A DNA stretch of 64,000 nucleotides from Planctomycetota bacterium (GCA_036376275.1 DASVAP010000014.1:23839-87838), one strand, 5' to 3'. Shown: positions 35,404 to 57,083, numbered from the stretch's first letter. Numbers and translations: made by a program. Notes: generated by a model not told the origin, from the letters alone.

Positions 35404-35910
35404 TCAGGGGCTGCCGGAGGGCCGGGACATCCAGCCCTCCCGGCGCAGGAACTCGACGATCGCGAACTCGTCCTGAACGCAGGAGTCGCTGGCGACGAGC
35501 TTCACGCGCGTGCAGTCGAGCCGCTCCAGCGAGCAGGCCGCCTCGGCCACGCGCACCAGGTCCAGCACGCGGTCCTCCAGGCGCCGTCCGGAGGGGTACT
35601 GGACGACGAGGTCGGTCCCGCCGCCCTCCACGGTCGTGAAGTCCAGCTCCTCGCCCGAGGCCTCGGGACAGGCCCGCAGGCGGATCTCGAGCCCCTCGTC
35701 GGCGAAGGCCGAGCGCGCCAGGAGCGCGGTCAGGCGCGCCCCGTCATGGGCGCGCAGGCGTAGCTCGAGGACCTCGACCCCGGGTCGCGACAGCTCGGGT
35801 CGCGGGAAGATCGCGAGCTGGCGGGGTTCCTTGGAGAGTCGCTGGAGCCGCGCGCGCCAGAACTCCGGGTCCATGAGAAGATGCCTCGAGGCGTCTCCGG
35901 TCAGACCCAT
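35404..35910 (-). CDS. hypothetical protein; weak resemblance to the N-terminal part of AXE1-type acetyl esterases but too short and without GxSxG
   Basis: 168 aa. DPEFWRARLQRLSKEPRQLAIFPRPELSRPGVEVLELRLRAHDGARLTALL resembles the AXE1 N-terminus. The nucleophile-elbow position reads VASDS, and the protein ends soon after. Confidence 0.45.
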   Translation of the reverse strand: MGLTGDASRHLLMDPEFWRARLQRLSKEPRQLAIFPRPELSRPGVEVLELRLRAHDGARLTALLARSAFADEGLEIRLRACPEASGEELDFTTVEGGGTDLVVQYPSGRRLEDRVLDLVRVAEAACSLERLDCTRVKLVASDSCVQDEFAIVEFLRREGWMSRPSGSP

Positions 35911-36083: not shown

Positions 36084-37433
36084 GTGATGCTGGCCGGTCT
36101 TCTCCTCTCTCTCCCCACGCCGACCCTCCCCTCTCCGCAGGCGCAGAGCTCCGGACCCACGGAAGGCGAGCGCATCGCGATCCGCGCCGAGCGCATCATC
36201 CTGCGCCCGGGCGTGGAGCTCACGAAGGGCACGCTGCTGCTCGAGCGCGGCGTCGTCGTGCGCGTCGGCCAGGACCTCTCGATCCCCGAGGGCGTGCGCG
36301 TGGTCGAGGGCGCCGTCGCCTGCGCCGGCTTCGTCGATCCCTGGTCGAGCCTGGGACTCGATCCCGACAGCGTGGGCGACCTCGGGGCCAGCGCGGCGAC
36401 GCGCTCGATCGACGCGCTCGACCCCTGGCTGGTGCCGGCCGAGCGGCGCGAGGCCCTGCTGGCGGGTGTCACCTCCGCGCGCGTGCAGATCGCGCGTGGC
36501 GCCCTGATCGCCGGCATCGGCGCCCTGGTGCAGACCACCGAGCGCAGCGAGCCGAGCGTCGTGCGCGAGGACGCCTGCCTGGCCGGGAGCGTCGGCGTCA
36601 GCCGCGGCGGGCGCACCGGCGACATCTTCGACCGCGCGGGCGAGGTGGACCGCCTGGTCGGCGCGCTGGAGAAGGGCAAGCGCTATCGCGAGTCCCAGGT
36701 CGACTTCAAGAAGGAGCTCGAGACCTGGACCAAGGCCATCGCCGAGAAGCTCGCCGAGCTCGAGAAGGACTTCAAGAAGGCCAAGAAGGACCGCGAGAAG
36801 GACGAGAAGGACGCCAAGGAGAAGGGCAAGGAGTTCAAGGACAAGAAGTACAAGGAGGACAAGAAGCCCCGGCGCCCGCGCTTCGATCCGGACGACGAGG
36901 CCCTGGCGCGCGCGGTCGACGGCGAGCTGCCCCTGGTGGTCGAGGTCCACCGCGCCAGCGAGATCCGCCGCCTCCTGGACCGCACGGCCGGCTTCGATCG
37001 CCTGCGCCTGGTCCTGGCGGGCGCGACCGAGGCCCTGGCCTTCGCCGACGAGCTGGTCGAGCGCCGGATCCCGGTGATCCTGTGGCCCGCGCCGATGGGC
37101 ACCTCGCGCCCGGACGAGTACGAGGGCCACGACCTGGCCCTGGCCGGCGCGCTGGCGCGCGAGGGCGTGCGGGTCCTGATCGGGAGCGGCGGCGGCGGCG
37201 ACGCCCAGGAGCTGCGCTTCCTGGCGGCGCTGGCGGTCGGGCACGGGATGGAGCCGGCGGCGGCACTGGCGGCGATCACCAGCGCACCGGCGGCGGTCTT
37301 CGACGCCGGCGATCGGCTGGGAACGCTCGAGCCAGGCCGCTCGGGCGACGTGCTGGTCTTCGACGGCGATCCGCTGGACACGCGCGCGACCCTGCGCGCC
37401 GTCGTCTCGCGTGGAGAGGTGGTGTTCCCGTGA
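36084..37433 (+). CDS. amidohydrolase-fold protein 1 of array (HxH lost; Lys/Glu-rich insertion)
   Basis: 449 aa. N-terminal sandwich RAERIILRPG...ERGVVVRVG. The HxH position reads AGFVDPWSSLG. Insertion: RYRESQVDFKKELETWTKAIAEKLAELEKDFKKAKKDREKDEKDAKEKGKEFKDKKYKEDKK. C-terminal LGTLEPGRSGDVLVFDGDPL. Confidence 0.8.
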   Translation: MMLAGLLLSLPTPTLPSPQAQSSGPTEGERIAIRAERIILRPGVELTKGTLLLERGVVVRVGQDLSIPEGVRVVEGAVACAGFVDPWSSLGLDPDSVGDLGASAATRSIDALDPWLVPAERREALLAGVTSARVQIARGALIAGIGALVQTTERSEPSVVREDACLAGSVGVSRGGRTGDIFDRAGEVDRLVGALEKGKRYRESQVDFKKELETWTKAIAEKLAELEKDFKKAKKDREKDEKDAKEKGKEFKDKKYKEDKKPRRPRFDPDDEALARAVDGELPLVVEVHRASEIRRLLDRTAGFDRLRLVLAGATEALAFADELVERRIPVILWPAPMGTSRPDEYEGHDLALAGALAREGVRVLIGSGGGGDAQELRFLAALAVGHGMEPAAALAAITSAPAAVFDAGDRLGTLEPGRSGDVLVFDGDPLDTRATLRAVVSRGEVVFP

Positions 37434-38635
37434 GCCTGGCCCTGTTCGTGCTCGCTTTCGCTCCCGGCGAGCCGGTCGCACCGCGCGAGGGCGTGCTGCA
37501 GATCCAGGCGGCCGAGATCTGGACCGCCGGCGGCGAGCGCATCCAGGACGGCCTGCTGCGGATCGAGGACGGTCGCGTGCGCTCGGTCTCGACCGGGAAG
37601 CAATCCGACCCCGCGCTGCCGCTCGTGCGTCATCCGGGCGTCGTCACGGCCGGGCTGATCGGGCTGCGCTCGCAGGCGGGCGTGGGCGGCGAGCTGCAGG
37701 AGGACACGCGCTCGGTCCTGGCGGAGGCGCGCGCAGTGCACGCCTTCGATCCGGCGCATCCGGACGTGGCGCGCGCGCTGGCGGCGGGGATCACCGCGCT
37801 CGAGCTGGCCCCTGCGCCCGGCAACGTGGTCGGCGGGCTGGCCTGCGTGGTCAAGACGTCCGGCGGGCGCGTGCTCACCAGCGAGGCCTCGCTCGCGCTC
37901 TCGCTGACCAGCGCGGCCCTGGGGCGCTCGACCGGGCCGTCCTTCTTCGTGTTCGGCGCGGCCGAGGTGCCGGGCGAGGCCCAGGCGCAGCCGGACGGCG
38001 GGCCCGAGTGGAGCGAGCGCACGCCGCGCGGCAACCGCGAGCCCACCAGCTACGCCGGGGCCCTCGCGCTCCTGCGCCGGAGCTTCGCCGAGGGCCAGGG
38101 GCCGTTCGCGCGCGCGAAGCGCGGCGACCTCGCGGTCACGATCGAGGCCTGGGACCGTCACGAGGTCCTGCGGGCCGTCGAGCTGGCGCGCGAGCTGGGT
38201 CTCGCGGGCGCGGTGCGCGGTGCGCCGCTGGCCGGCGATCCGGCCGTGGTGCAGGCCCTGAAGGAGAGCAAGCTGGGCGTGATCGTCGGCCCGTACTCCG
38301 CGGGCCAGACGCGGGCCTCGCTGGAGAGCGTGAAGACCCTCGCCGCGGCCGGCGTCCCGGTGGCCTTCGCGCTCGGCGATCCCGCGCGCTCGCCCGAGGC
38401 GCTGCGCCTGTCCGCCGCGCGCGCGCTGCGCGCCGGCGCGCCGCCGGCGGCGGTCTGGAAGGCGCTCACCGAGGACGCCGCGAAGCTGGCCGGCGTGGGC
38501 GCCTCGCTCGGGACCCTCGCGGCCGGACGCGAGGCCGATTTCGTCCTGTGGAGCGGCGATCCGCTCGATCTCCAGAGCCGCGTGGTCGCCGTCTACGTCG
38601 ACGGCCAGCGCGCCTGGCCGGCCCCGGGTCACTAG
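37430..38635 (+). CDS. amidohydrolase-fold protein 2 of array (HxH lost)
   Basis: 401 aa from GTG 37430 (GTGA overlap). The HxH position reads AGLIGLRSQAG. C-terminal LGTLAAGREADFVLWSGDPL. Confidence 0.75.
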   Translation: MSLALFVLAFAPGEPVAPREGVLQIQAAEIWTAGGERIQDGLLRIEDGRVRSVSTGKQSDPALPLVRHPGVVTAGLIGLRSQAGVGGELQEDTRSVLAEARAVHAFDPAHPDVARALAAGITALELAPAPGNVVGGLACVVKTSGGRVLTSEASLALSLTSAALGRSTGPSFFVFGAAEVPGEAQAQPDGGPEWSERTPRGNREPTSYAGALALLRRSFAEGQGPFARAKRGDLAVTIEAWDRHEVLRAVELARELGLAGAVRGAPLAGDPAVVQALKESKLGVIVGPYSAGQTRASLESVKTLAAAGVPVAFALGDPARSPEALRLSAARALRAGAPPAAVWKALTEDAAKLAGVGASLGTLAAGREADFVLWSGDPLDLQSRVVAVYVDGQRAWPAPGH

Positions 38636-38640
38636 CTGCC

Positions 38641-39837
38641 ATGCTGCTCCTCATCGCTCCGCTCCTCGCCGCGCTCCCGCCGGGCGACGACGACTGGACC
38701 ATCCAGGCCGCCACGGTCCACACCGTCTCCGGCGCGCCGATCGAGAACGGCTTCGTGCGCGTGCAGGGCGGCAAGATCGCCGCCGTCGGCAAGGGCGGCG
38801 GAGGCGCCACGCTCGAGTGCGCGGCGGTGACGCCCGGCCTGATCGACCTCGCGCTCGGGATCGACACGGGGCCGCTCTCGGTCGAGCAGTCGAGCGAGAC
38901 CGCCGCGCGCCTGAGCGCGAGCGACGGCCTCGACCTCTTCTCCTACCGCTGGGAGCGCGCGCTGCGCAGCGGCATCACGACCGCGCTGGCCCAGCCGGCC
39001 GACTACGACGTGATCGGGGGTCTCGGGCTCGTGCTCAAGACCGGCGGAGCCCCGACGCTCGCCGCGCGCCTGGTGAAGCCCGAGGCCTGCCTGCGCGGCG
39101 CGATCGGGGCCCAGCCGAGCAACGGCAACGCGATCCCGCGCTTCCAGGAGCCGCAGACCTTCTACTTCCGCCGCCCGACGACGCGCATGGGCGTCGAGTG
39201 GGTCTTCCGCAAGGCCTTCCACGACACGCTGCAGGGTCAGGGCGAGGACGATCCGGCCACGGCCGCCGACCACGCCGTGCTGCGCCGCGTCCTGGCGGGC
39301 GAGCTGCCGCTCGTCGTGCAGGCCAAGGCGACGCAGGACGTGCGCACGGCGATCTACCTCAAGGAGGAGTTCGGCATCCCGCGCCTGGTCCTCGACCACG
39401 CGATCGAGGCCTGGCGCGAGCCGGAGCTGCTGAAGCGCTCGGGCGTGGCCGTCATCCTGCCGCCCTTCACGGCCGACGGCCGGCACGCGGACGGGTTCGT
39501 GAACGACAGCTACTTCCTGCCGCTCGATGCGGCCCGGAAGCTGCACGAGTGGGGCGTGCCCTTCGCGCTCTCGGCCCACGAGGGCGCCGGCGCCGGCGCG
39601 CGCCTGGCGGACCAGGCGGCGGCCGCGCAGCGTGGCGGGCTCCCGCTCGCGGCCGCGCTCGAGGCCGTGACCCTGACCCCGGCGCGCCTGCTGGGCGTCG
39701 AGGCGCGCGTCGGCTCGCTGGAGGCCGGCAAGGACGCCGACCTCGTGCTGTGGAACGGTCCGCCGCTCCAGCCGACCTCGCGCATCATCGGCGTGCTGCT
39801 CCAGGGCCGCCTCGTGCTCGATCCCCGCTCGAAGTGA
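38641..39837 (+). CDS. amidohydrolase-fold protein 3 of array (HxH lost)
   Basis: 398 aa. Hydrophobic N-terminus MLLLIAPLLAAL. The HxH position reads PGLIDLALGID. C-terminal VGSLEAGKDADLVLWNGPPL. Confidence 0.8.
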   Translation: MLLLIAPLLAALPPGDDDWTIQAATVHTVSGAPIENGFVRVQGGKIAAVGKGGGGATLECAAVTPGLIDLALGIDTGPLSVEQSSETAARLSASDGLDLFSYRWERALRSGITTALAQPADYDVIGGLGLVLKTGGAPTLAARLVKPEACLRGAIGAQPSNGNAIPRFQEPQTFYFRRPTTRMGVEWVFRKAFHDTLQGQGEDDPATAADHAVLRRVLAGELPLVVQAKATQDVRTAIYLKEEFGIPRLVLDHAIEAWREPELLKRSGVAVILPPFTADGRHADGFVNDSYFLPLDAARKLHEWGVPFALSAHEGAGAGARLADQAAAAQRGGLPLAAALEAVTLTPARLLGVEARVGSLEAGKDADLVLWNGPPLQPTSRIIGVLLQGRLVLDPRSK

Positions 39838-39856
39838 GGCCGCGCCTCTCCAACGG

Positions 39857-41353
39857 ATGAACATGAAACGACTGCTCGCACCCGCGCTCCTCCTGGCCGC
39901 CCTCCTGGCCGCGCCGCTCCCGGCCCAGCAGGGCGGCAGGCTCGTGATCGAGGCCGGCCGCATCGTGACCCAGGCCGGGCCCGACATCGAGAACGGCCGC
40001 ATCGTGATCGACGGTGGCCGCATCACGGCCGTGGGCAAGGCCGAGGAGGTCGAGAAGCCCTGGGACGCGACCGTGATCGGCGGCAAGGCCTTCGTCGCCT
40101 TCCCCGGCTTCGTCGAGGCGCACACCTCGCAGGGCATGGATCGCGCCAACGAGAACATCGACGTCGCGCCGTTCCTCGACATCCGCGACTCGATCGACCC
40201 GGTGGCCTACTTCTTCGAGGACTGCCTGCGCCAGGGGATCACCACGATCAACGTGCAGCAGGGCGCCAACTGCGTCGTGGGCGGACGCGGCATGGTCGTG
40301 CGGCCGATCGGGATGACGGTCGAGGAGATGGCGATGCGTCCGCTGTTCGGGCTGAAGCTCTCGACCCGTCCCAAGGGCGGCAAGTCGCGCGCGACGCAGA
40401 TGCAGGCGCTGCGCTTCGCCTTCGAGGACCTGAGGCTGTACCTCGAGGGCCTGGTCGAGAAGGAGCGCGACGACGCCGGCTACGCCAAGCGCGAGGCGCT
40501 CTTCCAGGGCCGTGACCTGGAGGCCGAGGCCGCCCAGGGCCGGGCGATGGGCGGCACCGCCTGGAAGGTCGACGGACTCGAGCTGGTGCCGCGCGGGGCC
40601 CTGGACGAGCGCTACGCGCCGCTGCTCGAGCTGCTCGAGGGCCGCTACACCGCCTTCGTGCACTGCGGCGATCCGCTCGACGTCGTGCACGCGCTCGAGG
40701 TCGTGCGCGCCCAGGGGATCCTGGCCCGGACCGTGCTCGTGATCGAGCAGGACTGCTGGAAGGCCGCCGACCGCATCGCCGAGGCCGGCGTGCCGGTGAT
40801 CCTCGAGGGCGCGCTGCTCGACGTGCAGCGCGACCCGATCACGGGCGAGGAGGTCGAGACCTTCGTGCCCAAGGTCCTGCAGGAGAAGGGCATCCGCTTC
40901 GCGCTCTCCTCCGAGGACCCCAACACGCGCGCGCCGGCCTACCAGGCGGCCCTGGCGATCGCGCACGGGATGGAGCGCACGGCCGCGCTCGACGCCGTGA
41001 CCCGCGTGCCGGCCGAGATCCTGGGTCTGGGCGACGAGGTCGGCTCGCTCGAGCGCGGCAAGCTCGGCAACGTCCTGCTCTGCTCGGGCGACCCGCTCTC
41101 GGTCACCACCTGGGTCGAGCACGTCGTGATCGAGGGCCGGCTGGTCTACGAGCGCGCCAAGGACGTGCGCAACAAGCACCTGCTCGAGGGCGTGCAGCCG
41201 CTCGGCACGGCGCCGCCGACCTCGGCCGAGGCCGGCGAGGACCCCGAGCACGAGCACGAGAAGGCCGACGAGGACGCGGGCGCCGAGAAGGACGCCGGCG
41301 ACGAGCAGAAGGGCAAGGACGAGGACAAGGAGAAGGAGGACGGCGGACGATGA
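39857..41353 (+). CDS. amidohydrolase-fold protein 4 of array (HxH lost; acidic/Lys C-terminal tail)
   Basis: 498 aa. Signal peptide MNMKRLLAPALLLAALLAAPLPAQQ. The HxH position reads PGFVEAHTSQG. C-terminal VGSLERGKLGNVLLCSGDPL. The tail is EDPEHEHEKADEDAGAEKDAGDEQKGKDEDKEKEDGG. Confidence 0.8.
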   Translation: MNMKRLLAPALLLAALLAAPLPAQQGGRLVIEAGRIVTQAGPDIENGRIVIDGGRITAVGKAEEVEKPWDATVIGGKAFVAFPGFVEAHTSQGMDRANENIDVAPFLDIRDSIDPVAYFFEDCLRQGITTINVQQGANCVVGGRGMVVRPIGMTVEEMAMRPLFGLKLSTRPKGGKSRATQMQALRFAFEDLRLYLEGLVEKERDDAGYAKREALFQGRDLEAEAAQGRAMGGTAWKVDGLELVPRGALDERYAPLLELLEGRYTAFVHCGDPLDVVHALEVVRAQGILARTVLVIEQDCWKAADRIAEAGVPVILEGALLDVQRDPITGEEVETFVPKVLQEKGIRFALSSEDPNTRAPAYQAALAIAHGMERTAALDAVTRVPAEILGLGDEVGSLERGKLGNVLLCSGDPLSVTTWVEHVVIEGRLVYERAKDVRNKHLLEGVQPLGTAPPTSAEAGEDPEHEHEKADEDAGAEKDAGDEQKGKDEDKEKEDGGR

Positions 41354-44307
41354 GCGCTCGCCTGCTCGGCCTCGCGCTCGTCGCCGCGCCGCTCGGCCTC
41401 CTCGCGCCGCGCGCCGGGGACGGCCCGCCCGCGCCGGCCGGCCGCGGCTTCGTCGCCGTGCGCGCCGGCACGATCCACCTGGTCGAGGACGGGCGCGTGC
41501 TCTCCGGGGCGACGATCCTGGTGAAGGACGGCAAGATCCAGGCGGTCGGCGCCGACGTGGCGCTGCCGCCGGACGCGCTCGTCGTCGACTACGGACCCGA
41601 TGCGGTGATCGTGCCGGGGCTGGTGGCGGCCTACAGCTCCTACGCCCTCGGGTTCCCGAGCGAGCGCACGGCCGATCCGACCCTCTCGGCCCTGGACGCC
41701 TTCGACACCTACCGCGTCAACGGCGACGCGCTCTCCGGCGGCGTCACCAGCGCCTACCTCACGCCGGCCGACAACCGCCTGATCGCCGGCACGGCCGCGG
41801 TCGTCAAGCTGGCCGGTCAGCGTGACGCGGCGCGCGTGCTCAGCGCGGAGGCCGCGCTGCACGGCGCGATCGACGCCAGCGCGCGTTCCACGCCGGGCTA
41901 CTGGGACCCGCCCATCCCGGTCATGGTCGACGTCGAGCTCGGCTACGCGCGCCCGCAGCTCCCGCGCACGACCATGGGCGCGATCGTGGCCCTGGGCGAG
42001 CTGCTCGACCTCGCCGGCGATCCGGACGACGCGCGCCTGGTGAGCGAGTACGGGCCCCGCACCGGCCTCGCCCTGGCCCGCGCGCTGGCAGCCAAGGTCC
42101 CGCTGCGCCTGGCGGCCTCGGACGCGGAGGAGATCCGCGCCCTGCTCGCCTTCGCGGCCGAGCGGCGCGTGCCGCTCGTGCTCGACCGCGCCGAGGGCGC
42201 CGGAGCCGTGGCGGACGAGATCGCCGCGGCCGGCGTGCCCGTGGTCTACCGCCTGCCCTGGGTCCCGAACGCTCCGGCCGTCGACCGCGGCAAGGAGGAG
42301 GACGCGCGCTGGCCCACGCTCGACGTTCCGGCCCGGCTCGTGAAGGCCGGCGCGCGCGTGGCGATCACCGGCAGCTCCCCGCGCGACCTCTTGTTCGCGG
42401 CGCGCCTGGCCTCGCGCGGCGGGCTCGAGCCGGCCGCGGCCCTGCGCGCGATCACGCTGGCGCCGGCCGAGATCCTGGGCGTGGCCCAGCGCGTCGGCAG
42501 CCTGCGCGCCGGCAAGGACGCCGACCTGTGCGTCCTGAACGGCGACCCCCTGGCGTCCAGCACGAGCGTGCTGGCGACCTGGGTCGACGGCGAGGTGGCC
42601 TGGACGCCCGACCGGCACGCCCGCGAGGACGCGCGCGGCTCGCGCGCCACCGTGATCGAGGTCGAGGAGCTGCACGTCGGTGACGGTGAGGTGCTGCGCC
42701 CGGGGCAGCTCCTGATCCAGGACGGGCGCATCCGCGAGGTCGGCGCGCGCGTCTCGCACCCGCGCGGCGCCACCGTCGTGCGCGGCAAGACCTGCATGCC
42801 GGGGATGATCGACGCCTTCGGCCACCTGGGCCTGGAGGGCTCGCGCAAGGTGCCGGGAACCGACTTCACCCTGGCCACGATCCTCGACCCGGGCGATGCG
42901 CTCGACCGCCGCGTCGCCCGGCAGGGCATCACGACCGTCGTGCTCACCCCGCGCTCGGCCAGCGACAGCGGGGCCCCGGTCGCGGCCTACAAGCCCGCGG
43001 CGCGCGAGCTCGAGCACCTGATGGTCGCCGACCCGGCCGCCCTGCGCCTGCGCTGGGACGACCCCGTGCGCCTGCGCTCCGGCCAGAACGTGCGCGGCCT
43101 GCTCGCCAAGGCCCGCGACTACCGCCAGAAGTGGCTCGAGTACGAGCAGGCCATGGCCAAGTGGGTCCCGCCGGCCGAGCCGGCCGCCGAGCCCGAGAAG
43201 AAGGAGGACGAGAAGGCCGCCGACGCGAAGGAAGGCCAGACCTCCGAGGCCAAGGAGGAGAAGAAGGAGGAGTCCGACAAGAAGGAGGACAAGAAGGACG
43301 AGAAGAAGGACTCCAGGTCGAAGAAGAAGAAGGGCGAGCCCGAGGAGCTCGAGCCCGATCCGATCACCGGCCTGTGGCAGGCCGACCTGCCCCAGCCGGA
43401 GCCGGCCGCGCCGGCCAAGCTCAAGCTGCGCGCGAAGCTCGCCAGGGCCGGCGAGAGCGCAGCGGTCGAGGGCAACCTGCGCTGCGACGCGCTCTCGGCC
43501 ACGCTGATCGAGTTCGAGGGCTGGTTCGATCGCGAGGCGCGCACGCTGACGCTGAGCGGGGTCGGCAGCCGCGGCTGGGTCGAGCTCACGGGCGAGCTGA
43601 AGGAGGGCAAGCTCGCGGTCAAGGCGCGCGTCGACGGCAAGGAGCACGAGGCGACGCTCGAGCGCACCTCGAAGGAATACGTCGTCGCCGGACGCAGCGA
43701 GCGCGGCACAGAGAAGAGCGAGACCCCCAAGGAGCCCAAGGGCAAGCCCAGGGAACCCAAGCTCGACGGCAAGCTCGAGCCCCTGCGGCGCGCGATGGAC
43801 GGCACGGCGGCCCTGGTGGTCGAGGTCGAGCGCGCGCGCGACATCCTCGATTGCGTGGCGGCCTGCAACGAGGCCGGCATCCGCCCGGTGCTGTACGGCG
43901 CGCGCGAGGCGCACCTCGTGCTCGAGCAGATCGCCGGCAAGGTCGCGGGCGTCCTGCCCGCCTCCACGGTGGTCGTGGCCGAGGCCGAGCGCGGCACCGA
44001 CTACCGTGTGCCCTACGCCGAGCTGCAGAACGCCGGCATCCGCGTGGCCTTCCCGTCGGAGGCCGAGGAGGGCGCGATCGACCTGCCGCTGCGCGCGGCC
44101 TACGCGGTCGCGAACGGCATGAGCCCGGAGGGCGCCCTGCGCGCGCTGACGGCCGACGCCGCGGCCATGCTGGCGATCGACGGACGGGTCGGGCGCCTGG
44201 CCCCCGGGCTCGACGCCGACGTGCTGCTGCTGGACGGACCGCCGCTGGACCCCGCCACGAGCGTGCTGCGCGCGTGGGTGGCCGGCGAGGAAGTGGAGGC
44301 CCACTGA
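41350..44307 (+). CDS. double amidohydrolase-fold protein 5 of array (two tandem domains, both HxH lost; Lys/Glu-rich linker plus extra module in second domain)
   Basis: 985 aa with an ATGA overlap. Domain a has PGLVAAYSSYALG and ends VGSLRAGKDADLCVLNGDPL. Domain b has PGMIDAFGHLGLEG and ends VGRLAPGLDADVLLLDGPPL. The insertion reads DYRQKWLEYEQAMAKW...EPEKKEDEKAADAKEGQTSEAKEEKKEESDKKEDKKDEKKDSRSKKKKGEPEE. Confidence 0.8.
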   Translation: MSARLLGLALVAAPLGLLAPRAGDGPPAPAGRGFVAVRAGTIHLVEDGRVLSGATILVKDGKIQAVGADVALPPDALVVDYGPDAVIVPGLVAAYSSYALGFPSERTADPTLSALDAFDTYRVNGDALSGGVTSAYLTPADNRLIAGTAAVVKLAGQRDAARVLSAEAALHGAIDASARSTPGYWDPPIPVMVDVELGYARPQLPRTTMGAIVALGELLDLAGDPDDARLVSEYGPRTGLALARALAAKVPLRLAASDAEEIRALLAFAAERRVPLVLDRAEGAGAVADEIAAAGVPVVYRLPWVPNAPAVDRGKEEDARWPTLDVPARLVKAGARVAITGSSPRDLLFAARLASRGGLEPAAALRAITLAPAEILGVAQRVGSLRAGKDADLCVLNGDPLASSTSVLATWVDGEVAWTPDRHAREDARGSRATVIEVEELHVGDGEVLRPGQLLIQDGRIREVGARVSHPRGATVVRGKTCMPGMIDAFGHLGLEGSRKVPGTDFTLATILDPGDALDRRVARQGITTVVLTPRSASDSGAPVAAYKPAARELEHLMVADPAALRLRWDDPVRLRSGQNVRGLLAKARDYRQKWLEYEQAMAKWVPPAEPAAEPEKKEDEKAADAKEGQTSEAKEEKKEESDKKEDKKDEKKDSRSKKKKGEPEELEPDPITGLWQADLPQPEPAAPAKLKLRAKLARAGESAAVEGNLRCDALSATLIEFEGWFDREARTLTLSGVGSRGWVELTGELKEGKLAVKARVDGKEHEATLERTSKEYVVAGRSERGTEKSETPKEPKGKPREPKLDGKLEPLRRAMDGTAALVVEVERARDILDCVAACNEAGIRPVLYGAREAHLVLEQIAGKVAGVLPASTVVVAEAERGTDYRVPYAELQNAGIRVAFPSEAEEGAIDLPLRAAYAVANGMSPEGALRALTADAAAMLAIDGRVGRLAPGLDADVLLLDGPPLDPATSVLRAWVAGEEVEAH

Positions 44308-45587
44308 TGCTCTTCGCGCTCGTGCTCGCGCTGGCCGGCTCCGACCCGCCCGATCCCGGCGCTCCGGGCGGCTCCGGGCTGGCCCTGCTGGCCGCCAAGG
44401 TCCTGGCCGTGCCCTACCAGGGCCCGCAGGTGATCGATCGCGCCGTCGTGCTGATCAAGGACGGCAAGATCCAGGCGCTGGGCGAGCGCGAGACGCTCGC
44501 GATCCCGGCCGGCTACGCGGTCGAGGACCTGGGCGAGGCCTGGCTGACGCCGGGCTTCATCGACCTGCACTGCCACGCGGCCGGGGCCAACCTCTTCGCG
44601 GGCGTGAACGACCTGAACGACATGGTCTACCTCACGAACCCCGGGCTGCGCGCCTCGTCGGCGGTCGAGCCGTGGGTGTGGGAGATGCGCCAGGCGATCG
44701 CCGGCGGCGTCACGACCGTGCTCTACATCCCCGGTTCGGGCACGAACATCGGCGGCCAGGGCGTGCTCGTCAAGACGGCCTTCAACCACTACGAGGAGAA
44801 CCTCGTGCGCGATCCGGGCTCGATGAAGCTCGCGCAGTGGGGCAACCCCGAGGGCTGGGGTCCGGGCATCGGCATGGCCTTCGAGAACTGGAACACGCGC
44901 ACCGTGATCCAGCGCGGCGTGGCCTACGCCGAGCGCTGGCAGGCCCACGAGGAGAAGAAGGGCGCGAAGCCGCTGCGCAACATCGAGCTCGACGGCTTCC
45001 GCGACCTGGTGGCGGGCGAGATGGCCTTCTCGGTGCACACGCAGGTCTACCAGGTCGTCTTGATGACGATCACGATGCTGGCGGGCGAGTTCGGCCTGCC
45101 GGTCTTCACCGACCACTCCGAGGTCGGCGGCTGGCTGGCCGCGCCGGAGGCCAAGAAGCACGGCGTCCCGGCCATCATCGGCCCACGCAACGTCGACCAC
45201 GTCTACGCGCGCGGCTTCATCTCCTGGGCCCGCAACAAGCACGAGGGCACGCGCGGCCTGGCCGCCGGCTGGCAGTCGCTCGGCCAGGAGGACATCGGCT
45301 TCAACACCGACTCGCCCTTCGTGCCGGAGGAGGAGCTCTTCGTGCAGGCCACCATGGGCGTGCGCTACGGCCTGGACGACTCGAACCTCTCCTCGCTGCG
45401 CGGGCTGACGATCGTCCCCGCGCGCGCGGCCAGGATCGACGCCCAGGTCGGCTCGCTCGAGCCCGGCAAGGACGCGGACATCCTGGTGTGCGACGGCTAC
45501 CCGGTCGACCCGCGCACGACCGTGCGGCTGGTCTTCGTCGACGGCCGCCGGGCCTACGACGCCGAGCGCGACGGGCGCCGCTGGTAG
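44307..45587 (+). CDS. amidohydrolase 6 of array, catalytic residues intact
   Basis: 426 aa. Motifs: PGFIDLHCHAAG (HxH), SVHTQ, TDHSEV, IGFNTDSPFVP (beta-8 Asp). C-terminal VGSLEPGKDADILVCDGYPV. Confidence 0.85.
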   Translation: MLFALVLALAGSDPPDPGAPGGSGLALLAAKVLAVPYQGPQVIDRAVVLIKDGKIQALGERETLAIPAGYAVEDLGEAWLTPGFIDLHCHAAGANLFAGVNDLNDMVYLTNPGLRASSAVEPWVWEMRQAIAGGVTTVLYIPGSGTNIGGQGVLVKTAFNHYEENLVRDPGSMKLAQWGNPEGWGPGIGMAFENWNTRTVIQRGVAYAERWQAHEEKKGAKPLRNIELDGFRDLVAGEMAFSVHTQVYQVVLMTITMLAGEFGLPVFTDHSEVGGWLAAPEAKKHGVPAIIGPRNVDHVYARGFISWARNKHEGTRGLAAGWQSLGQEDIGFNTDSPFVPEEELFVQATMGVRYGLDDSNLSSLRGLTIVPARAARIDAQVGSLEPGKDADILVCDGYPVDPRTTVRLVFVDGRRAYDAERDGRRW

Positions 45588-45595
45588 GAACCGCC

Positions 45596-46891
45596 GTGCG
45601 CCCCGCGACCCACGCCGCCGTGCTCGTGCTGCTCGCCCTGGTGGGCGGCTGCCGCGCCACGGACGGCGCCGCGGCGGCGCGGCGCGAGGCCCTCGCGCCG
45701 CTCGCGCCGGGCGAGGCGGGGCTGGCGCTCGTGGTGGGCAAGCTCCTGACGCTCGACGCCGAGGAGCGCGTCTTCGACCCGGGTCTGGTGCTCGTGCGCG
45801 GCGAGAAGCTGGCCTACGCCGGCGCGCTGGTCGAGATCCCGGCCGGCTACGAGCGCCTCGATGCGCCGGACCTGTGGGCCTTCCCCGGCTTCGTCGACCT
45901 GCACACGCACATCCACGGCGCCGGCTGGTCCGACCTGAACGACATGGTGCGCCCGCTCAACCCCGAGCTGCGCGCGCGCCCCGCGATCGATCCGTGGGAG
46001 GAGCGCCTGGCGTACGCGCGCGCCGCCGGCGTGACGACGCTCTTCGGGATCCCCGGCAGCGGCACGAGCCTCTCGGGCTTCGGCACGCTGTACAAGCCCG
46101 AGCGCGACGCCGGCTACGAGGCGATGGTCCTGCGCGACCCGGGCGGCATGAAGATCGCCCAGAACTTCAACCCACAGCGCGGCGCCGGCGACCTGGGCGC
46201 CTCCTGGAGCGGCCTGGGCTGGAACCTCGAGTACCTGAACGATCGCGTGCACGCGGCCGCCACGCGGCAGGCTGAATCGGGCCAGGCCGCGGCGGGCCAG
46301 GCCACCCTTCCGGACTGGGAGCTCGAGAACCTGGAGCGCGCCCACCGCGGCGAGCTGCCGGTCCTGATCCACGCCGCCAGCGCCGAGGGCATCGCCAACG
46401 CGATCCGCATGTGGAAGCTGCGCTACGGCATGCATGCGGTGGTCTCGCACGGCTGCTGGGACGCCTGGCGCGCGGCGCGCTTCGCGGCCGAGACCGGGAC
46501 GCCCGTCAACGTCGGCCCGCGCACCGAGAACCTGCTGGCCATGCGGCGCGAGGACCGCTTCGTCGGCATCGCCGCCGAGTACGTGAAGGCCGGCGTGCCG
46601 CACGTCTCGCTCAACACCGACTCGCCCGTCGTGCCGCAGGAGGAGCTCTTCCTGCAGGGCACGATGTCGGCGCGGCGCGGCGCCGACCCCTACCAGATGC
46701 TGCGCGCGCTGACGGCCAACCCGGCGCTCGCCTTCCAGATCGGGGAGCGCGTGGGCAGCCTCGAGCCCGGCAAGGATGCCGACCTCGTGCTGGCCAGCGG
46801 CGACCCGCTCGACCCGCGCACCCACATCGAGCTCGTCCTGATCGACGGGCGCGTCCAGTACTCCCGCCGTGACGACGGGCCCATGCTCTAG
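45596..46891 (+). CDS. amidohydrolase 7 of array, catalytic residues intact, lipoprotein
   Basis: 431 aa from GTG 45596. Lipobox LALVGGC. Motifs: PGFVDLHTHIHG (HxH), VLIHAAS, VVSHGCW, VSLNTDSPVVP. C-terminal VGSLEPGKDADLVLASGDPL. Confidence 0.85.
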   Translation: MRPATHAAVLVLLALVGGCRATDGAAAARREALAPLAPGEAGLALVVGKLLTLDAEERVFDPGLVLVRGEKLAYAGALVEIPAGYERLDAPDLWAFPGFVDLHTHIHGAGWSDLNDMVRPLNPELRARPAIDPWEERLAYARAAGVTTLFGIPGSGTSLSGFGTLYKPERDAGYEAMVLRDPGGMKIAQNFNPQRGAGDLGASWSGLGWNLEYLNDRVHAAATRQAESGQAAAGQATLPDWELENLERAHRGELPVLIHAASAEGIANAIRMWKLRYGMHAVVSHGCWDAWRAARFAAETGTPVNVGPRTENLLAMRREDRFVGIAAEYVKAGVPHVSLNTDSPVVPQEELFLQGTMSARRGADPYQMLRALTANPALAFQIGERVGSLEPGKDADLVLASGDPLDPRTHIELVLIDGRVQYSRRDDGPML

Positions 46892-47053
46892 TGTCCTGAC
46901 CCAGAAGTTCGCATGCACCTTCCGCCGTCCTCCACCGCCTGGCGTCGTTGCTCCTCCTCGGCGTATCACCCTGGATACGCGGTCGTCGTCGCGCCTAGCC
47001 AGCCGGCGGATGCCGGCGGAAGCTGCATGCGAACCTCTGGGTCAGGACACTAG
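46888..47053. repeat. 166-bp element with 40-nt imperfect inverted arms (38/40 complementary) flanking an 86-nt spacer
   Basis: Arm 1 is 46888-46927: ctagtgtcctgacccagaagttcgcatgcaccttccgccg. Arm 2 is 47014-47053: cggcggaagctgcatgcgaacctctgggtcaggacactag. Mismatches occur only at 46906/47035 and 46918/47023. The spacer has its own 6-bp hairpin, cgtatc-accctg-gatacg. Arm 1 covers the stop of gene 7, and arm 2 abuts the AGGAG of gene 8. Confidence 0.9.
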
Positions 47054-47062
47054 GAGCCAGCG

Positions 47063-48391
47063 ATGCTCTCCCTCTTCCTCTCCAGCCTCCTGCTCGCGCC
47101 GCCGCCCGGCGGCGGCGACCTGGTGGCGATCCGCGTCAAGCGCGCCGAGACGATCGCCAGCGGTCCGCTCGAGCACGCCCTGATCCTCGTCGAGGACGGC
47201 AAGATCGTCGCGCTGGGCGAGGATCTGCCGGTCGAGCGCGGCATCCCGGTGCTCGACCGCCCCGACTGGGTCGTGACCCCGGGCCTGGTCAACGCCCACA
47301 CGCGCGTGGCCGGCGAGCGCTCGCCCGCGCGCCTGTTCGAGCCGCAGTCGCGCCCCACCTTCGACGTCGACCCGCGCCACGAGGCCTGGGAGGAGCTGCT
47401 CGAGCTCGGGATCACGACCGTGGGCTTCTACCCCGACGGCTCCGGCATCCCCGGCCAGGCGCTCGTGCTGCGCCCGCACGGCGAGACGCTGGCCGAGATG
47501 CTCGTGTCCGACTCCGCGTACCTGAAGATCCAGCTCCAGGCCAGCGCTTCCTCGAAGAAGGCCGTGCGCGAGGCCTTCGCCAAGGTCGACGAGTACCTCG
47601 AGAAGGTCGCCAAGGAGCGCGAGAAGTGGGAGAAGGACCAGGAGAAGAAGAAGAAGTCCTCCTCCAAGACGAGCTCCAAGAAGGAGGAGGAGAAGAAGGA
47701 CGATCCGAAGGCCGAGGAGAAGAAGGAAGGCGCCCTGACCCCTGAGGACGAGAAGGAGGAGGAGAAGCAGGACGACAAGAAGTCGACCGACGACAAGAAG
47801 GGCGACGTCTTCGTCCCGCCCGCGCCCGACGAGAAGGTCAAGCCCTTCCTCGACCTGCGCGAGAAGTCCCTGACGGCGATGATGTCGATTCGCAAGGCGG
47901 CCGACTACCTGCACCTCCTGGACGTGCTGAAGAAGGAGAAGGACGTGCAGTTCTTCCTGCAGTTCCCGCTGTCGGACGACGGCGACCTGTACGAGGTCGC
48001 CACGAAGATCGGCGAGAAGGGCCTGACCGTCGTGACGGTGCCCGAGGTGACGCTGCAGGTGAACAGCCTGCGCGAGCGCAACATCCCGGCCGAGCTCGTG
48101 CGCGCTGGCGCCAAGCTCGTGCTGACGCCGCGCTTCGACACCGTGCGCGGCCACGAGGACTGGCGCGCCGACGTCGGCCGCCTGGTGGGCCAGGGGCTCG
48201 CGCGCGAGGCGGCCCTGGCGGCGATCACGCTCGAGGCCGCGCGCGCCCTCGGTCAGGCGGAGGAGATCGGCAGCCTGGAGGTCGGCAAGCGCGCCGACCT
48301 CGTGTTCTGGAGCGGCGACCCGCTGGAACCGTCCTCGAAGGTCGAGGCCGTCATGCTGGGCGGCGAGTTCGTGGTGGGAGACGTGCCGTGA
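47063..48391 (+). CDS. amidohydrolase-fold protein 8 of array (HxH lost; Lys/Glu-rich insertion)
   Basis: 442 aa. The HxH position reads PGLVNAHTRVAG. Insertion: VDEYLEKVAKEREKWEKDQEKKKKSSSKTSSKKEEEKKDDPKAEEKKEGALTPEDEKEEEKQDDKKSTDDKKGD. C-terminal IGSLEVGKRADLVFWSGDPL. Confidence 0.8.
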   Translation: MLSLFLSSLLLAPPPGGGDLVAIRVKRAETIASGPLEHALILVEDGKIVALGEDLPVERGIPVLDRPDWVVTPGLVNAHTRVAGERSPARLFEPQSRPTFDVDPRHEAWEELLELGITTVGFYPDGSGIPGQALVLRPHGETLAEMLVSDSAYLKIQLQASASSKKAVREAFAKVDEYLEKVAKEREKWEKDQEKKKKSSSKTSSKKEEEKKDDPKAEEKKEGALTPEDEKEEEKQDDKKSTDDKKGDVFVPPAPDEKVKPFLDLREKSLTAMMSIRKAADYLHLLDVLKKEKDVQFFLQFPLSDDGDLYEVATKIGEKGLTVVTVPEVTLQVNSLRERNIPAELVRAGAKLVLTPRFDTVRGHEDWRADVGRLVGQGLAREAALAAITLEAARALGQAEEIGSLEVGKRADLVFWSGDPLEPSSKVEAVMLGGEFVVGDVP

Positions 48392-50010
48392 GCGATCGCA
48401 TCCGACGAAGCGTGATCTACCCCCTCTCCGCGCTGCTGCTGGCACTCGCCCCGGTGCTGGCGCCGATCTCCGCCCAGGAGGGCGAGGGCGGCGGCCCGCC
48501 GCCCGAGGAGGGCGGCGAGGAGGCCAAGACCGACGACGAGAAGGGCGCCAAGTACTTCGCGATCGTCGGCGGCGACGTGCACACCGGCACCGGTGCCGTG
48601 CTGCGCGGCGCGACGGTGCTGGCGCGCAACGGCAAGATCAAGGAGATCGGCTACGACGTCTTCGTGCCGCCGGAGGCCGAGAAGGTCGACGCCACGGGCC
48701 TGCGCGTCTACCCGGGCCTGGTCGCGCTCGGCGCGACCACGCGCCTCTCGCAGGGTCTGGGCGCGGCCGAGGGGCCGGAGCTGGGCGAGGACGAGTTCGA
48801 GCACCCGCACGACAAGCCGCGCGAGATCCAGTGGGACGGGCTCCTGCCCGTGGCGCTCGCGCCGGAGTCGCACGTCGGCGGCGACGACGAGCACCCCGAG
48901 CTGCAGGCCGAGGAGGAGGGTGCCGAGGAGGAGAAGAGCGAGATCGAGGACACCTTCGATCCCTTCAACTCGTTCCTCGTGCTGGCCCTGGCGACCGGGA
49001 TCACGACCGCCCAGCAGTCGACCGCGGCGGTCAAGCTCAAGCGCTACGAGATCGACGGCGTGCTGCTCTCCGACCGCAACCTGGCCAGCGTCACCTGGGG
49101 CCTCGCCAACCCGATCGGGATCCAGTCGACGCGCAAGAAGTTCGCCAAGGCCGCCGAGTACCTGCGCGAGCTGCGCGCCTGGCGCGCGCGCAACGACAAG
49201 AACGAGAAGGAGCCCAGCCGGCGCGGCGTCGACACGACGGCCCTCAAGGTGCTCTCAGGCGAGGCCCAGGCGCTGTTCCGTGCCAGCGCGCGCGAGGAGC
49301 TGCTCGGCATCGCGCGCTTCGCCCAGGAGCACGGCTTCCGCCCGGTCATCGAGGGCTGCGACGAGGGCTGGACCGTGGCCGACGAGCTGGGCCGCGCGGG
49401 CGCCACCGTCATCCTGACGCCGCGCGGGCGCAGCCCGAAGGACGAGCGCTTCGTGCGCCCGGGCGGGGCCTCGATCGAGAACGCCGCCCGGCTCCACGCC
49501 GCCGGCGTGCAGATCGCCGTGCGCCCCGAGAGCACCTCGATCGACTTCGTCGGCACGGCCGGGCGCGACCTGATCGCGCTGCCGGTCGAGGCCGGCTTCG
49601 CCGTGCGCGGCGGGCTCTCCGAGCAGGCCGCGCTGGAGGCGATCACGATCGTCCCCGCGCGCGTGCTCGGCATCGCCCACCGGGTGGGCACGCTCGAGCC
49701 CGGCAAGGACTGCGACGCGATCGTCACCGACGGCGACCTGCTGCACTACCAGACCTTCGTCCAGTACACGGTCGTCGACGGCAAGCTCGTCTACGACAAG
49801 GAGCAGGAGATCTACTTCGCCCACATCCGCCCGCGCCCGAAGAAGCCGGAGCCGGCGAAGGAGGAGGCCGAGGCGGCGGGCGCGGAGAAGGCCGAGACGC
49901 CCGCCGAGGAAGGCGCCGAGGAGCCCGAGAAGGGCGCCGAGGCCGAGGACGAGGACGAAGCCGAGGAAGAGGCCAAGGACGAGAAGAAGGACGACTCGAA
50001 GGACGAGTAG
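48388..50010 (+). CDS. amidohydrolase-fold protein 9 of array (HxH lost; acidic insertions and tail)
   Basis: 540 aa from GTG (GTGA overlap). Signal peptide RRSVIYPLSALLLALAPVLAPISAQ. The HxH position reads PGLVALGATTRLS and is followed by an acidic insertion. C-terminal VGTLEPGKDCDAIVTDGDLL. The tail is KKPEPAKEEAEAAGAEKAETPAEEGAEEPEKGAEAEDEDEAEEEAKDEKKDDSKDE. Confidence 0.8.
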   Translation: MSDRIRRSVIYPLSALLLALAPVLAPISAQEGEGGGPPPEEGGEEAKTDDEKGAKYFAIVGGDVHTGTGAVLRGATVLARNGKIKEIGYDVFVPPEAEKVDATGLRVYPGLVALGATTRLSQGLGAAEGPELGEDEFEHPHDKPREIQWDGLLPVALAPESHVGGDDEHPELQAEEEGAEEEKSEIEDTFDPFNSFLVLALATGITTAQQSTAAVKLKRYEIDGVLLSDRNLASVTWGLANPIGIQSTRKKFAKAAEYLRELRAWRARNDKNEKEPSRRGVDTTALKVLSGEAQALFRASAREELLGIARFAQEHGFRPVIEGCDEGWTVADELGRAGATVILTPRGRSPKDERFVRPGGASIENAARLHAAGVQIAVRPESTSIDFVGTAGRDLIALPVEAGFAVRGGLSEQAALEAITIVPARVLGIAHRVGTLEPGKDCDAIVTDGDLLHYQTFVQYTVVDGKLVYDKEQEIYFAHIRPRPKKPEPAKEEAEAAGAEKAETPAEEGAEEPEKGAEAEDEDEAEEEAKDEKKDDSKDE

Positions 50011-55924: not shown

Positions 55925-56021
55925 GGCTCGCGGCAGGATAGCGCCCGGCGGTGGGGGTTCACGGACCGGCGGCGCGCGTTGTCCGCCGAATCGGCCTCCG
56001 CTAGGCTGCCCTTTCCCCTGC

Positions 56022-57083
56022 ATGATCCTGCGCGACCTCCTGCGCGTCCTGGGCTCGAACGACCGCCGGGACGGGCGCAACCTGACCCACGAGGAGGCCT
56101 ACCGCGCCTTCCTGACGATCCTGGACGGCGAGGAGAGCGAGATCCGCATCGGCGCCTTCCTGATCGCCCTGCGCTGGAAGGGCGTCACGGTCGACGAGGT
56201 CACCGGCTTCGCGCGCGCGGCCCGCGAGCGCGCCACGATCCCCTGCCAGGGCATGGCCGGCCTCGTGTGCCTGTGCCCGCCGCACGACGGCTACGACCTG
56301 ACGCCGCCGCTCGAGGTCGCGGCCGGCATCGTGGCGGCCGGGGCCGGGGCGCGCGTCCTGCTCGTGGCCGACCGCGGCGTGCCGCCCAAGCGCGGATTGA
56401 CCGGCGCGCACGTCCTGGAGGAGCTCGAGGCGCCGATGAGCTGGGACCCGGCCGAGGCCGAGCGCCACGTGAAGGAGGCCGGCTTCGGCGCGATCGCGGC
56501 CCCGGGCATGCTGCCGGCGCTGCTCGGCCTGCGGCGCGTGCGCGGCGACGTCGGCGTGCGCACGCCGCTCTCGACGGTCGAGAAGCTGATCGTGCCGGCC
56601 AGCTCGGCGCTGCTGCTCGGCTCGAACCCCGGCGCCGTGCTCGGCCTCGCGGCCGGCACGATGGCGGGCCTCGGCCACTCGGCCGGGATCGCGATCCAGG
56701 GCGTCGGCGGCGGGATCATCCCCTCGCTCACGCGCCGCACGCGCGGGGTCGAGATCGCCGGCCTGCACCAGGTCCCGCTCTCGGTCGAGCCGGCCGACTT
56801 CGGCCTCGACGCCCCGGAGAACCCCGAGCTCCCGATGTACGGCCCGCCCGACGAGGGCCAGGGCCCGGGCGACAACCCGGCCCTCGTGCGCGACGCCGGC
56901 GCGATGACGCGCTCGGTCCTGGCGGGCGAGGCGGGCGCGGCGCGCAACGCGACGCTGCTCGGCGCGGCCGTGATCCTGAAGGCCGCCGGCCGCGCGCTGA
57001 CCCTGGCCGAGGGCGTGGACGCGGCCATGAAGAGCCTCGAGTCGGGCAAGGCGCGCGCGGTGCTGGCCAAGCTGAAGGCGTAG
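56022..57083 (+). CDS. glycosyl transferase family 3 (TrpD-like) protein, GTGGD motif not conserved
   Basis: 353 aa. N-terminal helical domain EAYRAFLTILDGEESEIRIGAFLIALRWKGVTVDEVTGFA. The core aligns with TrpD (RVRGDVGVRTPLSTVEKLIVP). The GTGGDG position reads CPPHDGY. Confidence 0.65.
   Translation: MILRDLLRVLGSNDRRDGRNLTHEEAYRAFLTILDGEESEIRIGAFLIALRWKGVTVDEVTGFARAARERATIPCQGMAGLVCLCPPHDGYDLTPPLEVAAGIVAAGAGARVLLVADRGVPPKRGLTGAHVLEELEAPMSWDPAEAERHVKEAGFGAIAAPGMLPALLGLRRVRGDVGVRTPLSTVEKLIVPASSALLLGSNPGAVLGLAAGTMAGLGHSAGIAIQGVGGGIIPSLTRRTRGVEIAGLHQVPLSVEPADFGLDAPENPELPMYGPPDEGQGPGDNPALVRDAGAMTRSVLAGEAGAARNATLLGAAVILKAAGRALTLAEGVDAAMKSLESGKARAVLAKLKA

Follow-up and report, generated by a model that had tools for sequence, protein, structure and literature searches.

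A stretch of 64,000 nucleotides from a Planctomycetota bacterium (GCA_036376275.1, DASVAP010000014.1:23839-87838) was analysed; the whole stretch is referred to as the window, and positions are counted from its first letter. The G+C content of the window is 72–78%. By means of a frame plot of the G+C content at third codon positions (GC3) and the corresponding translations, an operon of nine consecutive genes (g1 to g9) was delineated at 36084-50010 on the + strand. These genes encode ten domains with an amidohydrolase fold, g5 alone holding two of them (5a and 5b). An earlier note on this DNA, made from the sequence alone, had described a set of secreted paralogues of which only two adjacent members keep the metal-binding residues, and had judged the reading frames intact and the codon bias normal. 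The latter holds: GC3 is 0.95–0.99 in the nine genes, like in the rest of the genome, and no frame disruption was seen in the plot.

The genes are tightly packed. Stop and start codons overlap at four junctions of the window (g1/g2, g4/g5, g5/g6 and g8/g9), and three further junctions are separated by gaps of 5–19 nt. In public databases, the members of the operon are labelled 'amidohydrolase family protein', 'imidazolonepropionase-like amidohydrolase' or 'hypothetical protein'. For the products of g1 (P0125) and g5, NCBI lists proteins of 100% identity under the designation 'MAG TPA: amidohydrolase family protein [Planctomycetota bacterium]', where MAG stands for metagenome-assembled genome. 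For the Kuenenia proteins, a search by exact sequence gave neither names nor accession numbers.

In order to assess family membership, the proteins were compared with profiles and structures. All nine score above the gathering cut-off of Pfam family PF01979 (Amidohydro_1), with 29.7–77.5 bits versus 25. The AlphaFold2 models of g1 (predicted local distance difference test, pLDDT, 87.9; predicted template modelling score, pTM, 0.85) and g5 (pLDDT 81.9; pTM 0.50), which are confident at the level of single domains, display the (beta/alpha)8 barrel plus beta-sandwich of the amidohydrolase superfamily. Foldseek assigned both models to amidohydrolase structures at a probability of 1.00; the best match was in each case PDB entry 3OOQ, with template modelling (TM) scores, normalised to the target, of 0.81 for g1 and 0.82–0.83 for g5, and other amidohydrolases reached 0.6 or less. 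For g2, g3, g4, g8 and g9, membership follows from hhalign comparisons with g6 (probability at least 99.9%). 3OOQ, an uncharacterised Thermotoga maritima MSB8 amidohydrolase from structural genomics, was also the best structural match at the sequence level, with E-values of 7e-34 for g6 (phmmer, residues 47-419, all six metal ligands aligned), 1.9e-36 for the g1 profile and 3.9e-42 for the g5 profile; the next-best structures followed at 1e-9 to 1e-12. The operon proteins thus belong to an unnamed, 3OOQ-like branch of the superfamily. None of the nine reaches an equivalog cut-off of NCBIfam. The best-matching family overall, the Xaa-Pro dipeptidase model NF051886, gives 17–90 bits across the nine and 61–62 bits for g6 and g7 (cut-off 500), and the imidazolonepropionase model TIGR01224 (HutI) gives at most 64.7 bits (cut-off 298). 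The public 'imidazolonepropionase-like' labels are generic.

The positions of the metal ligands were assigned in three ways: by profile-profile alignment, by HMMER alignment to 3OOQ, and by AlphaFold2 models in combination with Foldseek searches of the PDB. For the profile-profile alignment, each orthologue group was compared with the g6 group by means of hhalign (probabilities 99.86–100%). The orthologues came from 18 related loci, namely 16 that contain most or all of the operon and the partial contigs L001 and L002. All three methods agree, and the HMMER register relative to 3OOQ is the same for g6, the g1 profile and g5a. The complete set of binuclear metal ligands, which consists of HxH in beta-1, Lys in beta-4, His in beta-5, His in beta-6 and Asp in beta-8, occurs in g6 and g7 only, and all six positions are shared with 3OOQ. 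The six g6 ligands are invariant in 37 g6-type sequences of clade A and in 17 of 17 distant g6 orthologues. Among 17 g7 orthologues, five ligands are invariant and the Asp is present in 16, with one gap. The beta-4 Lys, which the earlier note had not mentioned, is likewise invariant in both proteins and therefore marks a binuclear centre. By their ligands, g6 and g7 thus qualify as putatively competent binuclear amidohydrolases. The segment 44307-46891, in which the earlier note had located its two live members, corresponds exactly to g6 plus g7, and beta-5 and beta-6 histidines, which it had considered plausible, are assigned in both (H244 and H270 in g6, H259 and H285 in g7).

Table 1. Features of the window. 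"Dead" denotes loss of the canonical metal centre.
Feature	Position	Strand	Remarks
g1	36084..37433	+	449 aa, dead paralogue; NCBI start is ATG 36087; Pfam Amidohydro_1 37.7 bits
g1 charged insert	36624..36824	+	predicted single 67-residue helix (AlphaFold2)
g2	37430..38635	+	401 aa, dead paralogue; start overlaps g1 stop (GTGA)
g3	38641..39837	+	398 aa, dead paralogue
g4	39857..41353	+	498 aa, least degenerate dead paralogue
g5	41350..44307	+	985 aa, two-domain protein
g5a	41350..42630	+	first dead domain of g5
g5b	42631..44307	+	second dead domain of g5
g5b charged insert	43084-43341	+	disordered, Lys/Glu-rich
g5b inserted beta domain	43369-43671	+	eight strands, g5 residues 674-774 (AlphaFold2 model)
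g6	44307..45587	+	426 aa, putative catalytic-type subunit
g6 ligand codons (alignment)	44568-70, 44574-76, 44826-28	+	H88, H90, K174
g6 ligand codons (alignment)	45036-38, 45114-16, 45309-11	+	H244, H270, D335
g7	45596..46891	+	431 aa, second putative catalytic-type subunit
g7 ligands (alignment)		+	H103, H105, K186, H259, H285, D342
g8	47063..48391	+	442 aa, dead paralogue
g8 charged insert	47552-47845	+	large, Lys/Glu-rich
g9	48388..50010	+	540 aa, dead paralogue; start overlaps g8 stop
Divergent upstream gene	35404..35910	-	168 aa, no family match; neighbour in 10 related loci
g7-g8 hairpin	46888..47053		166 nt
TamA (Omp85/POTRA) and TamB	50286-56080	-	convergent to g9
TrpD-like gene	55623-57083		

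The other eight domains (g1, g2, g3, g4, g5a, g5b, g8 and g9) lack the six-ligand set in every orthologue examined. The motifs on which the earlier note had based this view are all found verbatim in the translations. From g1 to g9, the beta-1 position reads DPWSS, GLRSQ, DLALG, EAHTS, AAYSS (g5a), DAFGH (g5b), DLHCH (g6), DLHTH (g7), NAHTR and ALGAT. At beta-8, g6 reads IGFNTDSPFVP and g7 VSLNTDSPVVP, and the others read GSGGGGD, FALGDPA, LSAHEGA, LSSEDPN, ITGSSPR, FPSEAEE, LTPRFDT and VRPESTS. The canonical centre is lost in all eight; the picture of uniformly ligand-free domains needs correction, as up to two of the six ligands are retained, namely the first His and the Lys in g4, and the Lys and the Asp in g8. 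In g9, an Asp near beta-8 is often kept. Since single ligands survive in g4, g8 and often g9, "dead" is used here for the loss of the canonical centre and not of every ligand. With this proviso, the eight domains are predicted to have lost catalysis. Shifted ligands, which would have undermined this assignment, were sought among residues that are at least 90% conserved: g1, g2, g3, g4, g5a and g5b contain no such His, and g8 and g9 contain two each, none of which occupies a ligand position. The pattern of ligand loss is therefore real and no alignment artefact.

The replacements differ from domain to domain. In the six ligand columns, g1 contains W (15/15), S/A, G, E, G (15/15) and G; the first His is thus replaced by Trp, and the beta-6 His as well as the beta-8 Asp by Gly. 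In g2, conservation among H, D, E, C and K is limited to D370. Aligned to 3OOQ, the positions of g5a are Y/S, H (in place of Lys), A, R and S. For g5b, a Glu was assigned to beta-5 by eye from the register with g1 (VVEVHRA versus VVEVERA); the hhalign placement of this position within the inserted domain of g5b was overruled by that register. In g8, the columns read Y/H, R (16/16), K (13/16), A, R/D and D (15/16), which means that the second His is an Arg in all 16 orthologues. The least degenerate member is g4, in which the second His, both the beta-5 and the beta-6 His, and the beta-8 Asp are missing. Its first His (H89) is kept in 14 of 17 orthologues and its beta-4 Lys (K167) in 16 of 17, and a Cys next to beta-5 (C270) is conserved; all three persist in most orthologues across the phylum.

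The distribution of the operon was determined by scanning one genome per species, which yielded relatives of g6 in 387 stretches, and by tblastn searches with the nine proteins on 80 fetched loci. The order g1-g2-g3-g4-g5-g6-g7-g8-g9, with one to three copies of g6, is kept in 16 loci of Planctomycetota MAGs at 45–80% identity. More distant Planctomycetota, among them Pirellulaceae bacterium SH467 (complete genome), Aureliella, Pirellula and Ca. Kuenenia stuttgartiensis, contain g1, g2, g3, g4, g5, g6, one g8-like gene and g9, and no g7; this form comprises nine domain types, one catalytic-type g6 and eight dead ones. Every complete locus contains exactly one copy of each dead type, and only the g6 type varies; in some relatives, g7 is accompanied by two or three copies of g6. 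None of the loci examined has a dead gene that is disrupted or missing. Each subunit type is represented by hundreds of protein clusters at 90% identity.

When hidden Markov models (HMMs) were built from the close orthologue groups, most of the distant domains gave their highest score with the model of the domain at the corresponding position. The exceptions were a number of short segments with low scores, in particular at the position of g8 and within some halves of g5b or g1. Given this correspondence, the nine paralogue types appear to predate the split of the lineages, which suggests that they had differentiated before the window clade, the Pirellulales and the Ca. Kuenenia lineage separated. 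In most dead types, the residues at the former ligand positions are less constant. For example, the column of the first His in g1 contains W in clade A and F, G, R, S, N or H elsewhere.

In the phylogenetic tree, g6 and g7 form a clade with 100% bootstrap support, and g7 is the sister paralogue of g6; the hhalign score of this pair is 696, compared to 130–360 for any other pair. The ancestral single live member is g6, and the ancestral state is thus one catalytic subunit and not a pair. The "catalytic pair" of the earlier note consequently applies to g6 and g7 of the window and is lineage-specific, given that only g6 is of the catalytic type in distant Planctomycetota. A split with 85% support divides all dead types from g6, g7 and the outgroup enzymes. 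This topology fits a single ancient loss of the ligands with subsequent radiation, and long-branch effects may contribute to it. A division of the dead types into two classes (g1, g4, g5b and g8 versus g2, g3, g5a and g9, corresponding to four A/B pairs) was considered and rejected, as it received a neighbour-joining bootstrap support of 0–3%.

Outside the phylum, the relatives are single genes or pairs. In an Acidobacteriota MAG (L078, 9896-11224 and 11143-12495), a live 3OOQ-like gene is followed by a dead paralogue, and both products carry signal peptides as well as a short Lys-rich insert. The dead protein reads HTT at beta-1, keeps the Lys, lacks the beta-5 and beta-6 His and contains a Glu in place of the Asp, a pattern which resembles that of g4. 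This two-gene version may resemble the ancestral state. Partial degeneration is seen in the second gene of a Bacillota locus (L048), which has lost the Lys and the beta-6 His.

The selection acting on the dead paralogues was assessed from their orthologues. The mean pairwise identities of the eight dead types (14–18 orthologues) are 0.48, 0.42, 0.53, 0.57, 0.50, 0.51, 0.51 and 0.53, those of the live types 0.52 for g6 (36 sequences) and 0.54 for g7. Ratios of nonsynonymous to synonymous substitution rates (dN/dS) are informative only for the close pairs L014/L017 and window/L081, because distant pairs such as window/L003 are saturated or constrained by a GC3 of about 97%. For L014/L017, the least saturated pair, the Nei-Gojobori method (NG86) yielded dN/dS values of 0.045–0.10 for all nine genes. 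The comparison of the window with its closest relative L081 (92–97% identity) yielded 0.12–0.28 for g1 to g5 and 0.14 for g6; for two neighbouring genes, coding for a sulfatase and PNP, the values are 0.25 and 0.36. The dead paralogues are under purifying selection and are as constrained as the live ones. They are intact, single-copy and selected for, which agrees with the view of the earlier note that they are not decaying genes.

There are two natural fusions: g5a and g5b are fused in every locus examined, and g1 and g2 are fused in Pirellulaceae, giving a protein of about 860 aa. The median intergenic distance is 9.5 nt. Overlaps were counted at 46 of 136 junctions, and they are nearly the rule for g6/g7 and g8/g9. 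The tight gene coupling, the overlaps and the two fusions speak for a stoichiometric complex.

All nine N-termini are hydrophobic. In an N-terminal hydrophobicity test with independent gene calls, 94% of the g6, 73% of the g1 and 80% of the g5 orthologues passed, and the cytoplasmic proteins of the window failed. Both g4 and g9 start with Sec signal peptides, which are of the classical type in g4 and in the orthologues of both; g7 carries a lipoprotein signal with the lipobox residue Cys19 (codon 45650-45652), and a lipobox Cys is present in 10 of 16 orthologues. It is therefore plausible that all nine proteins are exported, in line with the secretion proposed previously.

Several of the proteins are extended beyond the common fold. 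Inserts rich in Lys, Glu and Asp are located between beta-4 and beta-5 of g1, g5b and g8; charged, acidic C-terminal tails occur on g4 and g9, and g9 contains a further acidic insert after beta-1. The combined fraction of Lys, Glu and Asp is 0.44–0.58, tails included. These stretches are no random low-complexity sequence. In the strongly conserved g1 insert, F229, K230, K231, K234, R236, E257 and P261 are invariant, and several of the Lys, Phe and Arg residues do not vary across 49 orthologues, which identifies the insert as a constrained sequence and not a spacer. For the beta domain inserted into the barrel of g5b, no Pfam match was obtained at E-values up to 10.

The closest structural relative offers a model for the quaternary structure. 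The 3OOQ entry contains ten chains of one sequence, and a benchmark of 10-30-chain complexes lists it as a dihedral homomer (bioRxiv 10.64898/2026.08.06.736029); the dihedral listing and the ten identical chains imply a D5 decamer. 3OOQ is the product of one cytoplasmic-type gene and a homomer, whereas the operon encodes nine proteins, or ten domains, that are differentiated paralogues, eight of them without the ligand set. The operon proteins also differ from 3OOQ by their signal peptides and charged inserts, by the extra beta domain and by the fusion of genes.

The COG1228-type peptidases share superfamily and domain layout with the operon proteins and are distant (TM 0.5–0.6). Comparators of this type were Sgx9260b/c (3FEQ, 3N2C, 3MKV), which are Xaa-Pro dipeptidases, the Arg/Lys carboxypeptidase Cc2672 (3MTW), isoaspartyl dipeptidase (1ONW) and ochratoxinase (4C60). 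They form large homo-oligomers, many of the entries having eight chains. Their binuclear HxH/Lys/His/His/Asp centre is of the same type as that of g6 and g7, as judged from the kind of centre and not from a residue-by-residue comparison. Sets of dead paralogue partners are not known for these peptidases.

Pseudoenzymes of the superfamily include the CRMP/dihydropyrimidinase-related proteins and Pseudomonas PyrC', an inactive dihydroorotase-like protein that scaffolds aspartate transcarbamoylase. They share with the dead domains of the operon the amidohydrolase fold and the loss of metal ligands, and selection has likewise kept them, in their case as non-catalytic binding or scaffold subunits. 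CRMP and PyrC' are, however, one dead protein each, compared to eight ordered dead paralogues with a live sibling. The similarity to CRMP2 is confined to a generic C-terminal region (E about 1e-8).

The preservation of the dead domains across the phylum points to an undescribed multi-subunit machine that is built mainly from pseudoenzymes. We lean, with modest confidence, towards the view that the nine genes code for the subunits of one exported, probably periplasmic, hetero-oligomer, in which hydrolysis is left to g6-type subunits and the dead paralogues provide scaffolding or binding. Physical association is inferred from the operon structure, the gene fusions and the co-inheritance of the genes. 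Hydrolysis would be carried out by g6-type subunits only, that is, by g6 and g7 in the window and by g6 alone in distant lineages. Their centre would be binuclear and bridged by a carboxylated lysine. Dipeptidases, carboxypeptidases and cyclic amidases possess centres of this type, and the target is therefore likely to be an amide or peptide bond. The eight dead domains would serve as position-specific, non-catalytic subunits for scaffolding, substrate binding or gating. The lipoprotein g7 may tether the assembly to the membrane, and the Lys/Glu-rich helices, the tails and the beta domain of g5b could provide additional interaction surfaces. The presence of the operon in polymer-degrading Pirellulales as well as in the autotrophic Kuenenia would argue for a housekeeping role in the periplasm or envelope rather than for nutrient scavenging.

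A homo-oligomer whose positions were taken over by paralogues would explain the ten domains, the fusions between neighbours and the retention of every dead type. A similar logic can be proposed for the eukaryotic 20S proteasome, in which only three of the seven beta subunit types are active, as well as for CCT and the COMMD heterodecamer, where positions of a homo-oligomer have been taken by paralogues, most of them non-catalytic yet essential for assembly. These complexes have unrelated folds and are mostly eukaryotic or cytoplasmic. As 3OOQ has ten chains in a dihedral arrangement, the simplest geometric model is a differentiated decamer that is filled by the ten domains of the operon. In its most specific form, this would be a D5 hetero-decamer with a different paralogue at each of the ten positions and one dimer position that is catalytic (g6/g6 ancestrally, g6/g7 here). 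Such a particle would represent a periplasmic, lipid-anchored counterpart of proteasome-style differentiation, conserved in several orders of Planctomycetota and probably serving a core function in the envelope or in peptide processing. We regard this specific form as speculative and rather unlikely.

Several observations weigh against a hetero-oligomer or its decameric form. The number of domains differs from ten, with nine types in distant lineages and up to twelve domains elsewhere (three g6, g7 and eight dead ones), which is a misfit with a particle of ten fixed positions. The D5 symmetry of 3OOQ is implied by a crystal entry and a secondary source and not by solution data. The monomeric AlphaFold2 model of the g5 fusion, with a pTM of only 0.50, provides no confident interface between 5a and 5b. 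With its conserved His, Lys and Cys, g4 may have kept the ability to bind a metal or a ligand. The branching order among the dead paralogues is without support, including the A/B pairing mentioned above. Finally, the single-gene relatives from Firmicutes (Desulfofundulus, Wansuia and Pelotomaculum) have no consistent neighbour that would hint at a substrate; a C26 peptidase adjoins once.

Alternatively, the proteins may work independently of each other. The ligand-less members would then be periplasmic binding or sensor proteins or metal-independent enzymes that share one pathway with g6 and g7 and handle a family of related substrates; co-transcription would only serve co-regulation. Some members of the amidohydrolase superfamily, such as the LigI-type lactonases, are indeed metal-independent; these enzymes still keep His and Asp, however, which the dead domains do not. 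In favour of this view, each dead type has conserved polar residues of its own (for example W86 in g1; R81, D359 and H284 in g8; H89, K167 and C270 in g4). In most dead types, however, the former active-site residues vary between clades, as exemplified by the replacement of W in g1 by F, G, R, S, N or H, and this variability speaks against a conserved pocket, be it for catalysis or for a ligand. The lack of confident packing between the two domains of the g5 model and the variable copy number of g6, which makes the live members look modular, are in accordance with independent proteins. Against this stand the co-inheritance of eight types in one copy each at phylum-level divergence, the stop/start overlaps and the two fusions, all of which are more typical of obligate complexes. 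On these grounds we consider independent proteins a serious but rather improbable explanation.

Less probable still, and in our opinion improbable, is a primarily structural role, in which the proteins would form a lattice, in the periplasm or on the surface, as part of the planctomycete cell envelope. The activity of g6 would then be secondary and might, for example, mature or turn over the lattice or peptidoglycan peptides. A housekeeping function in the envelope is suggested by the occurrence of the operon in both heterotrophic Pirellulales and autotrophic anammox bacteria (Kuenenia). The lipoprotein anchor of g7 and the long, conserved and highly charged helices and tails would suit a lattice, and in the window TamA and TamB adjoin the operon. 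The TamAB neighbourhood is, however, not conserved: in 14 related loci, the TrpD-like gene directly follows g9, which marks the TamAB pair as inserted or rearranged in this genome only. Moreover, the literature searched draws no link from proteins of this kind to envelope structures.

The notion that the eight dead domains are decaying duplicates heading for loss, for which only the loss of the catalytic ligands speaks, is refuted by intact frames in every locus, by GC3 values like those of the rest of the genome, by dN/dS values (0.045–0.28) that are the same as or below those of g6, g7 and neighbouring housekeeping genes, and by orthologues that are recognisable by position across Pirellulales, Brocadiales and the window clade.

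Bacterial enzyme complexes are usually homomers or consist of few subunit types, and a differentiation into ten kinds would be unusual among them. If the hetero-oligomer exists, it would represent an extreme case of paralogue differentiation in prokaryotes, with eight position-specific pseudoenzymes around one or two live subunits, and would offer a tractable model for the transition from a homo-oligomer to an obligate heteromer. Retention in both Pirellulales and anammox Kuenenia probably marks a conserved, unrecognised part of periplasmic or envelope biology in planctomycetes. The analysis further flags a large family whose members are labelled 'amidohydrolase' or 'imidazolonepropionase-like', although most of them cannot be such hydrolases. 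No description of the operon was found in the full-text literature searched, which covers few subscription journals.

One candidate relative has been detected experimentally. GMBLW1_16190 of Tuwongella immobilis, listed in the supplement of PMC8567305, has a mass of 96 kDa, two PF01979 domains and a predicted Sec signal, and was found in the soluble fraction only. Its gene is not surrounded by a nine-gene operon.

Most genes that flank the operon in the window are not conserved; the divergent gene upstream and the TrpD-like gene downstream recur in relatives. Within the operon, the 171-nt spacer between g7 and g8 is filled by a near-perfect hairpin, which extends from the stop codon of g7 to about 10 nt before the start of g8. 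Its 56-nt arms are 89% complementary, and the folding energy is -113 kcal/mol (z = -11.8). No second copy was detected in the window, and the orthologous operons lack the hairpin, their spacers being 5–55 nt long. The element looks like an inserted palindromic sequence, similar to miniature inverted-repeat transposable elements (MITE) or repetitive extragenic palindromes (REP), or like an operon-internal RNA structure, and lies outside the protein system.

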